Part shown: positions 60,001 to 62,442 of the stretch, one piece after another
How the letters are laid out: each line of letters begins with the position of its first letter
How positions within the stretch are numbered: the first letter of the stretch is position 1
Assembly: GCF_016903815.1 (NCBI RefSeq)
Contig: NZ_CP069973.1
Direction: 5' to 3' (one strand)
DNA from: Escherichia coli
Lineage (GTDB): Bacteria; Pseudomonadota; Gammaproteobacteria; Enterobacterales; Enterobacteriaceae
Length of the DNA stretch: 64,000 nt
Program-made: the position numbers

Positions 60001-62442
60001 CAATCTGTGTTGCGGCAATATTGGTTAACGCTTCACCGACCGCCAGACGGGCAGAGGCGGCGAAATCTAGCAGCGCAACCGGCGCACGCTCGCCAATCGC
60101 CATCGCTTCACCATAGTAGCTGTCAAGGCTGGCGGTAGTGACCGCGCAGTTAGCGACCGGCACCTGCCACGGACCCACCATCTGATCGCGCGCCACCATG
60201 CCAGTTACGCTGCGGTCACCGATGGTCACCAGGAAAGTTTTCTCTGCCACAGTCGGCAGATGCAGTACGCGTTTCACCGCGTCAGCGATGGTGATCCCTT
60301 CACGAACCAGCGCATCACCCTTCGCTTTCAGCGTTTGTACTTCGCGGGTCATCTTCGGCGTTTTACCAAGCAGGACGTCCAGCGGCAGATCGATCGGCTG
60401 ATTATCAAAATGACGATCGTGCAAAGAAAGATGCAGTTCTTCGGTCGCTTCACCAATCACCGCGTATGGCGCGCGCTCACGCTTACACAGTTCGTCAAAC
60501 AGCGGTAACTGATCGGCAGCAACCGCCAGCACGTAGCGTTCCTGGGATTCGTTACACCAGATTTCCAGCGGGCTCATGCCCGGTTCGTCGCTCAGGATAT
60601 CGCGCAGTTCGAATTTACCGCCGCGCCCGCCGTCGCTCACCAGTTCCGGCATGGCGTTAGAAAGACCGCCAGCGCCGACGTCGTGGATAAACAGGATTGG
60701 GTTGGCATCACCAAGCTGCCAGCAACGGTCGATCACTTCCTGGCAGCGACGCTCCATCTCCGGGTTGTCGCGCTGTACGGAAGCAAAGTCGAGGTCGGCA
60801 TCAGACTGACCAGACGCCATGGAAGACGCCGCGCCGCCGCCAAGACCGATGTTCATTGCCGGGCCGCCGAGAACGACCAGCTTCGCACCAACGTTGATCT
60901 CGCCTTTTTGTACGTGATCGGCGCGAATGTTGCCGATCCCGCCCGCCAGCATGATCGGTTTGTGATAACCGCGCAGCTCTTCGCCATTGTGGCTATTCAC
61001 TTTTTCTTCATAAGTACGGAAGTAGCCGTTCAGTGCCGGACGACCAAATTCGTTGTTAAATGCCGCGCCACCAAGCGGGCCTTCGGTCATGATGTCCAGC
61101 GCGGTGACAATGCGCTCAGGCTTACCGAAATCTTCTTCCCACGGTTGTTCAAAGCCCGGAATACGCAAGTTGGAAACGGAGAAACCAACCAAACCAGCTT
61201 TCGGCTTCGCGCCGCGCCCGGTGGCACCTTCATCGCGGATTTCACCGCCGGAACCGGTCGCCGCGCCCGGCCACGGAGAAATCGCCGTCGGGTGGTTGTG
61301 AGTTTCGACTTTCATCAGAATATGCGCCGGTTCCTGATGGAAATCGTAGCGGCCCGTTTCGTGGTCAGCAAAGTAGCGGCCCACTTCAGAACCTTCCATT
61401 ACGGCGGCGTTATCTTTATAAGCAGAGAGAACGTGATCCGGCGTGGTTTCGAAGGTGTTTTTGATCATCTTAAACAGCGATTTCGGCTGCTGTTCACCAT
61501 CGATAACCCAGTCGGCGTTAAAAATTTTGTGGCGGCAGTGCTCGGAGTTCGCCTGGGCAAACATATACAGTTCGATGTCGTTCGGGTTACGACCAAGCTT
61601 TGTGAAAGCATCCTGCAAATAGTCAATTTCATCTTCCGCCAGTGCCAGGCCAAGACGCAGGTTAGCGTCGATTAGCGCCTGACGGCCCTGCCCCAGCAAA
61701 TCAACGCTGGTGACCGGAGTCGGTTGATGGTGTGCAAACAGCTGCTCTGCATCATCTAAAGCAAAAAAGACCGTTTCCATCATGCGGTCGTGCAGTTCAG
61801 CGGTAACCTGCTGCCATTGTTCATTGGTCAGCGTACCGGCTTCTATATAGTAAGCCACGCCGCGCTCAAGACGGTTTACCTGTTGCAGCCCGCAGTTATG
61901 GGCAATATCGGTCGCTTTCGAAGACCAGGGAGAGATGGTGCCAGGACGCGGGGTCACCAGCAGGAGTTTGCCTTGCGGGGCGTGGCTGGCGAGTGCCGGG
62001 CCATATTTCAGCAGGCGTTCAAGTTGTGCGTGCTCATCATCGTTTAACGGCGCATTGAGGTCAGCAAAATGGACATACTCGGCGTAAATAGTGTGAACCG
62101 GGAGCCTGGCAGCCTGAAAACGTGCCAGCAGTTTGTTGATTCGGAATGCCGACAATGCAGGCGAACCACGCAGAATTTCCATCATAAGTCTCTCGTCTTC
62201 TAAGCTTTCGGTGTACCCAAGGGGGGGAAACGGGCGTCATTATAAAGAATCTGATGCGCTGACGAAACCGTTTGCGTGGAAATAAAATCACCATCGCGAA
62301 TTAGCAACGCGTGCCGCCACTGGCTGTAATAAGTTGCCAACTGGCGCAGGTTTACGCAAAATGCCGCTCATTTATGAGTAAACCTTTCACTATTATTACT
62401 TTTTTTCAAGCTGGGACGCGCACGACACAGAGAATTAACTAA

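Follow-up and report, generated by a model that had tools for sequence, protein, structure and literature searches.

The PurR operator upstream of purL in Escherichia coli: identity, conservation and placement over the -35 region

The genes purL and mltF of Escherichia coli are transcribed divergently, and the region between them contains a 16-bp near-palindrome that resembles the sites bound by PurR, the purine repressor. This raises two questions: Is this sequence the operator through which PurR represses purL, and where does it stand relative to the point at which purL transcription begins? We approached both questions by computational analysis of the window, by which we mean the whole 64-kb stretch of DNA that was analysed (positions below are window positions unless K-12 is named), in combination with published coordinates and orthologous loci. 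Our reading, to which we assign a probability of about 96%, is that the element is the known and already curated PurR operator of the E. coli purL promoter, and that the regulation is of the ordinary textbook kind.

Identity of the box upstream of purL

The first-pass annotation of this locus had named the span 62186-62442, which is exactly the whole 257-bp purL-mltF intergenic region: the purL ATG occupies 62185-62183 on the minus strand, and mltF starts at 62443 on the plus strand. Within this span it had placed a near-consensus PurR box on the purL strand at 62262-62277, 77-92 bp upstream of the purL start. Direct reading of the sequence bears out both statements: the plus strand carries ACGAAACCGTTTGCGT at these positions, the reverse complement of which is ACGCAAACGGTTTCGT on the purL strand, and, counted from the A of the ATG, position 62262 is 77 bp away and position 62277 is 92 bp away. 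The box differs from the perfect palindrome ACGCAAACGTTTGCGT by two mismatches, with the central CpG kept (Table 1). A segment of 421 bp around the box matches 5425 of 5426 complete E. coli genomes at 95-100% identity, with purL and mltF annotated beneath the matches.

Table 1. Features of the purL gene and its promoter (window positions).
Feature	Position	Strand	Basis or remark
purL CDS, the regulated gene, 1295 aa	58298..62185	-	ORF and RefSeq annotation of identical or near-identical E. coli records
Conserved initial transcribed sequence	62221..62231	-	GTTTCCCCCCC; GTTT(T)CCCC in other genera
Main purL start (G)	62231	-	SMRT-Cappable-seq; 46-nt 5' UTR
GC-rich discriminator GACGCCC	62232..62238	-	Between -10 and +1; conserved as g.CgCCC
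-10 hexamer TATAAT of the purL promoter	62239..62244	-	Sequence; perfect, 17 nt past the box
Putative weak -35 hexamer TTTCGT	62262..62267	-	Promoter-proximal end of the box, 17 bp upstream of -10
PurR operator (PUR box)	62262..62277	-	ACGCAAACGGTTTCGT; imperfect 16-bp palindrome, central CpG at 62270/62269
A/T-rich stretch	62278..62290	-	GATTTTATTTCC; adjoins the box upstream, about -59 to -47; partly conserved

The annotation had proposed two checks, a PurR matrix scan and a comparison with curated purL operator coordinates, and both agree with it. For the scan, we derived a log-odds matrix from 25 ChIP-supported PurR motifs (Cho et al. 2011, PMC3159470 Table 1), leaving out possible sites within the window. 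The purL box scores 21.48 of a possible 25.8 bits, which makes it the second-best of 128,000 positions (64-kb window, both strands), behind the glyA operator. The exact p for this score is 3.5e-8 per position, and 1 of 300 shuffled windows reached it. These values bear on the simplest alternative, namely that the box is a chance palindrome without any regulatory role. Short A/T-rich palindromes do arise by chance, and when the perfect palindrome is searched for with three mismatches allowed, 0.84 matches are expected per window; in contrast, a matrix score as high as that of the purL box is expected only 0.0045 times per 64-kb window, both strands included. The sequence CCCGTTTTCCC, which follows the -10 hexamer, was considered as a second PurR site and rejected, since it is absent from the top matrix scores.

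The same scan touches other genes in the window. The best score, 21.9 bits, belongs to the glyA operator ACGCAAACGATTACCT on the plus strand at 52268-52283, in the divergent region between glyA and hmp. The ORF of glyA begins 113-128 bp downstream of this operator, which is included both in the table of Cho et al. 2011 (PMC3159470 Table 1) and in the RegulonDB list (PMC2585596). A site for glnB, TTGAAATCGTTTGCAT, scores 12.3 bits at 54119-54134, which is 68-83 bp ahead of the glnB ORF (53713-54051, minus strand) and at the 3' end of the preceding gene. This site is among the RegulonDB PurR sites (PMC2585596), and glnB went undetected in the ChIP-chip experiments of Cho et al. (PMC3159470). No PurR site for guaBA was found in the 64-kb window, though arithmetic on K-12 coordinates had hinted at one.

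The comparison with published coordinates leads to the same bases. By ChIP-chip, the PurR-bound region of purL spans K-12 positions 2,693,490-2,693,714, corresponding to 62110-62334 of the window, and its motif ACGAAACCGTTTGCGT is given at 2,693,642-2,693,657 in an older K-12 coordinate version (Cho et al. 2011, PMC3159470 Table 1). A shift of 1978 bp between the K-12 versions puts this motif at 2,695,620-635, that is, at window 62262-62277 (near purL, the K-12 MG1655 coordinate is the window position plus 2,633,358). A 2008 paper (PMC2585596 Table 2) includes the identical 16-mer in its list of RegulonDB PurR sites, so that the curated operator and the box are one and the same sequence at the same bases. 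The ChIP-chip peak has a log2 ratio of 1.88 with exogenous adenine and is absent without adenine (PMC3159470); because it is about 225 bp wide, assignment of the signal to individual bases rests on the motif. This corepressor-dependent occupancy in vivo, which speaks against a chance palindrome, applies to a sequence that K-12 and the window have in common over the box and the core promoter. The same study counts purL as one of the IMP-pathway genes that PurR represses with hypoxanthine (PMC3159470), and in Yersinia pestis the level of purL mRNA rises by log2 1.9-2.8 upon deletion of purR (PMC10673613). We found no evidence against binding of PurR at the purL box. Footprints and gel shifts of PurR in vitro were reportedly described by He et al. 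1990 (J Bacteriol 172:4555), a paper that several others cite for them, with Meng et al. 1990 cited alongside as primary work of the same kind.

Within E. coli, the 70-bp core of the purL promoter is identical in 4496 of 5425 genomes, and the other 929 differ somewhere within it. In the one core variant that we examined, from O157:H7, the sole difference is one C fewer in the C-run of the 5' UTR (window 62221-62227); this run has seven C in the window and in K-12, and six in three further E. coli genomes, O157:H7 among them. The window and K-12 MG1655 are identical over the segment that runs from the purL ATG to the far end of the box, and the four intergenic differences between them (62297, 62320, 62340 and 62400) all lie between the box and mltF.

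Conservation among Enterobacterales

Orthologous loci were collected with a degenerate 23-nt pattern at the purL start codon (ATGGARATYCTGCGYGGYTCNCC), using one genome per species. The box lies outside this pattern; the pattern itself biases the sample to Enterobacterales with conserved N-terminal codons of purL. The scan gave 120 loci, from which we excluded one chance match in an Oscillospiraceae MAG (L115) and three loci with too little upstream sequence. The 116 remaining loci were scored for the box, and the tally of the -10 hexamer has n = 117 since one of the short loci still holds the box. The sample covers about 30 genera of the Enterobacteriaceae, Erwiniaceae, Morganellaceae and Hafniaceae.

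A recognisable box is present in all 116 scored loci, 85-116 bp before the conserved purL ATG, and it is intact in 115 of the 117 usable loci. Most loci carry ACGCAAACGGTTTCGT, while Pantoea and Erwinia have GCGCAAACGGTTTCGT and Pluralibacter has ACGCAAACGGTTACGT. In an ungapped alignment anchored on the box, information content is near 2 bits in all 16 box columns and near zero in the flanks and most of the spacer. The distance to the -10 hexamer is equally constant: TATAAT in 113 loci, or TATACT in the other 4, always stands exactly 17 nt past the end of the box (117/117). One would expect so strict a linkage between the two elements if one half of the box also served as the -35 element. The TTCT that precedes the -10 hexamer is also conserved, as is, in part, the A/T-rich stretch upstream of the box.

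Degraded boxes were found in only two loci, both from insect symbionts: the Arsenophonus endosymbiont of the whitefly Aleurodicus floccissimus (L032) and the Type-B symbiont of Plautia stali (L103). In both, the central CG has become CA, in a box about 104 bp upstream of purL. Decay of this kind would fit relaxed selection in reduced genomes. For the proposal that the box is a chance palindrome, these observations leave a probability that is practically nil: across about 30 genera the flanks drift but the box hardly varies, and it is degraded only in two host-restricted symbionts. Matrix score, ChIP data and conservation together exclude a chance match. The same three lines of evidence, with the curated operator, support purine-repressible control of purL by PurR, as the annotation had proposed.

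Promoter geometry and mode of repression

On the purL strand, the elements follow one another in the order GATTTTATTTCC ACGCAAACGGTTTCGT CAGCGCATCAGATTCTT TATAAT GACGCCC GTTTCCCCCCC. Published SMRT-Cappable-seq data (PMC6131387 Supplementary Data 2) place starts of purL (b2557) on the reverse strand of K-12, at positions 2695589 and 2695578, which convert to window positions 62231 and 62220 with an uncertainty of ±1 nt from the coordinate convention. The first of these is a G eight nucleotides past TATAAT. With +1 at 62231, the box extends from -46 to -31, over the -35 region of the purL promoter, and the leader is 46 nt long. The annotation had assigned the box to the purL "leader", in the sense of the transcribed 5' UTR, and in this respect it has to be corrected: both published starts, as well as the TATAAT at 62244-62239, are downstream of the box.

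From the invariant 17-bp spacing between box and TATAAT (117/117 loci) we infer that TTTCGT, at the promoter-proximal end of the box, serves as the -35 hexamer. It agrees with TTGACA at 2 of 6 positions, and a consensus scan for sigma-70 promoters (4-of-6 rule) did not detect the purL promoter because its -35 is this weak. The A/T-rich stretch that adjoins the box upstream is possibly an UP-like element for purL. A terminator-like match on the minus strand at 62309-62292 was set aside, there being no upstream gene to terminate.

How, then, would PurR act on this promoter? PurR is a dimer of the LacI family that binds the PUR box after taking up its corepressor, hypoxanthine or guanine (PMC10912719). 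When purines are plentiful, the dimer loaded with either corepressor would occupy the 16-bp imperfect palindrome, the proximal half of which would coincide with the weak -35 hexamer. The position of the box from -46 to -31 implies competition between PurR and sigma-70 that would prevent initiation: bound PurR would exclude RNA polymerase by competing with region 4 of sigma-70, and perhaps also with the C-terminal domains of the alpha subunits on the adjacent A/T-rich stretch. When purines are scarce, corepressor-free PurR would leave the site, and purL would be transcribed from the G at 62231 with its 46-nt leader. The geometry thus points to steric occlusion of the promoter at -35, as opposed to a roadblock to transcription.

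A roadblock would require that PurR bind downstream of the purL start, within the transcribed leader, and block elongation there. The PurR sites of purB and purR do lie within transcribed or coding sequence (Cho et al., PMC3159470), and the position of the purL box, between the divergent mltF and the purL ATG, is one for which the sequence alone would allow a start further upstream. We consider this mechanism highly improbable at purL, because both published starts are downstream of the box (PMC6131387), the spacing of 17 bp between the box and the perfect TATAAT is constant over 117 loci, and the consensus scan shows no promoter-like site on the purL strand upstream of the box.

PurR might also, or instead, repress a promoter of the divergent mltF gene that overlaps the box. 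The consensus scan does find a promoter-like site on the plus strand at 62259-62288 (CTGACG, 18 nt, TAAAAT) that overlaps the box, and its TAAAAT lies within the partly conserved A/T-rich stretch. The match is weak, however (9/12), two such sites were found in the region against about 0.5 expected by chance, and about 155 bp separate this one from the start codon of mltF. Moreover, the Cappable-seq operon table (PMC6131387) has no start for mltF (b2558) between its b2557 and b2560 rows, Cho et al. assign the ChIP-chip peak to purL only (PMC3159470), and an UP-like element for purL would explain the conservation of the A/T-rich stretch equally well. We therefore regard control of mltF through the box as very unlikely, and retain occlusion of the purL promoter as the preferred reading.

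The alignment contains one further conserved element, at the start site itself. The block GTTT(T)CCCC (+1 to +9) shows per-column conservation comparable to that of the PurR box across the roughly 30 genera, with G at the predicted +1 (62231) in 102 of 117 loci. A search of Rfam families across 61900-62700 gave no match. With its T-run immediately past +1, the block is of the kind that undergoes UTP-sensitive reiterative transcription or start-site switching at pyrBI, codBA and galP2. The discriminator between -10 and +1 is GC-rich, as are those of the K-12 purM, cvpA-purF, purH and purT promoters. GC-rich discriminators are a hallmark of promoters under stringent control; a literature search for a link between purL and ppGpp or the discriminator returned nothing relevant. 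It is conceivable, if improbable, that the purL promoter carries at the GTTT(T)CCCC block a second control element that is independent of PurR; in that case, expression of purL would respond to pyrimidine or initiating-nucleotide pools as well.

The second reported start, 62220, is a T directly after the C-run of the leader, 11 nt downstream of the main start, and no obvious -10-like hexamer precedes it. Its position exactly at the end of the C-run could relate it to the start-site block.

The purL operator among known PurR sites

As a curated and experimentally supported member of one of the best-studied bacterial regulons, the purL operator carries little weight as a discovery. Its value is that of a positive control, in that a true 16-bp operator was located at the right coordinates from sequence alone. 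The analysis makes small additions to this picture: the operator lies over the -35 region and not in the leader, the spacing between box and -10 is invariant at 17 bp, and degraded boxes are confined to two symbionts. The conserved block at the start site is the sole item left unexplained, and the only lead that may be worth an experiment.

Compared with the purL operator of E. coli K-12 (RegulonDB; ChIP-chip, PMC3159470), both the 16-mer and its position relative to purL are identical, and nothing else differs substantially; what the window holds is the K-12 element in a different strain of E. coli. PurR sites in general lie over the -35 to -10 region (Cho et al., PMC3159470), and the varied placement of the box over the core elements of the K-12 pur promoters agrees with this statement. 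The closest arrangement is that of purE-purK in E. coli, where the box is 16 nt upstream of the likely -10 (TATTCT) and covers the -35 region, as at purL, while the half-site sequence (ACGCAACCGTTTTCCT) and the downstream sequence differ. The operators of purMN, cvpA-purF, purHD and purT have in common with purL the 16-bp motif, the central CpG, overlap with the core promoter and a GC-rich discriminator. They differ from it in placement: at purM and cvpA-purF the box lies between -35 and -10, 7 nt from TAGAAT, and at purH and purT it abuts the -10, whereas the purL box is over the -35. The intragenic operators of purB and purR, which are of the roadblock type, share the repressor and the motif family with purL; in contrast to the purL box, which lies upstream of the transcription start, they lie downstream of it.
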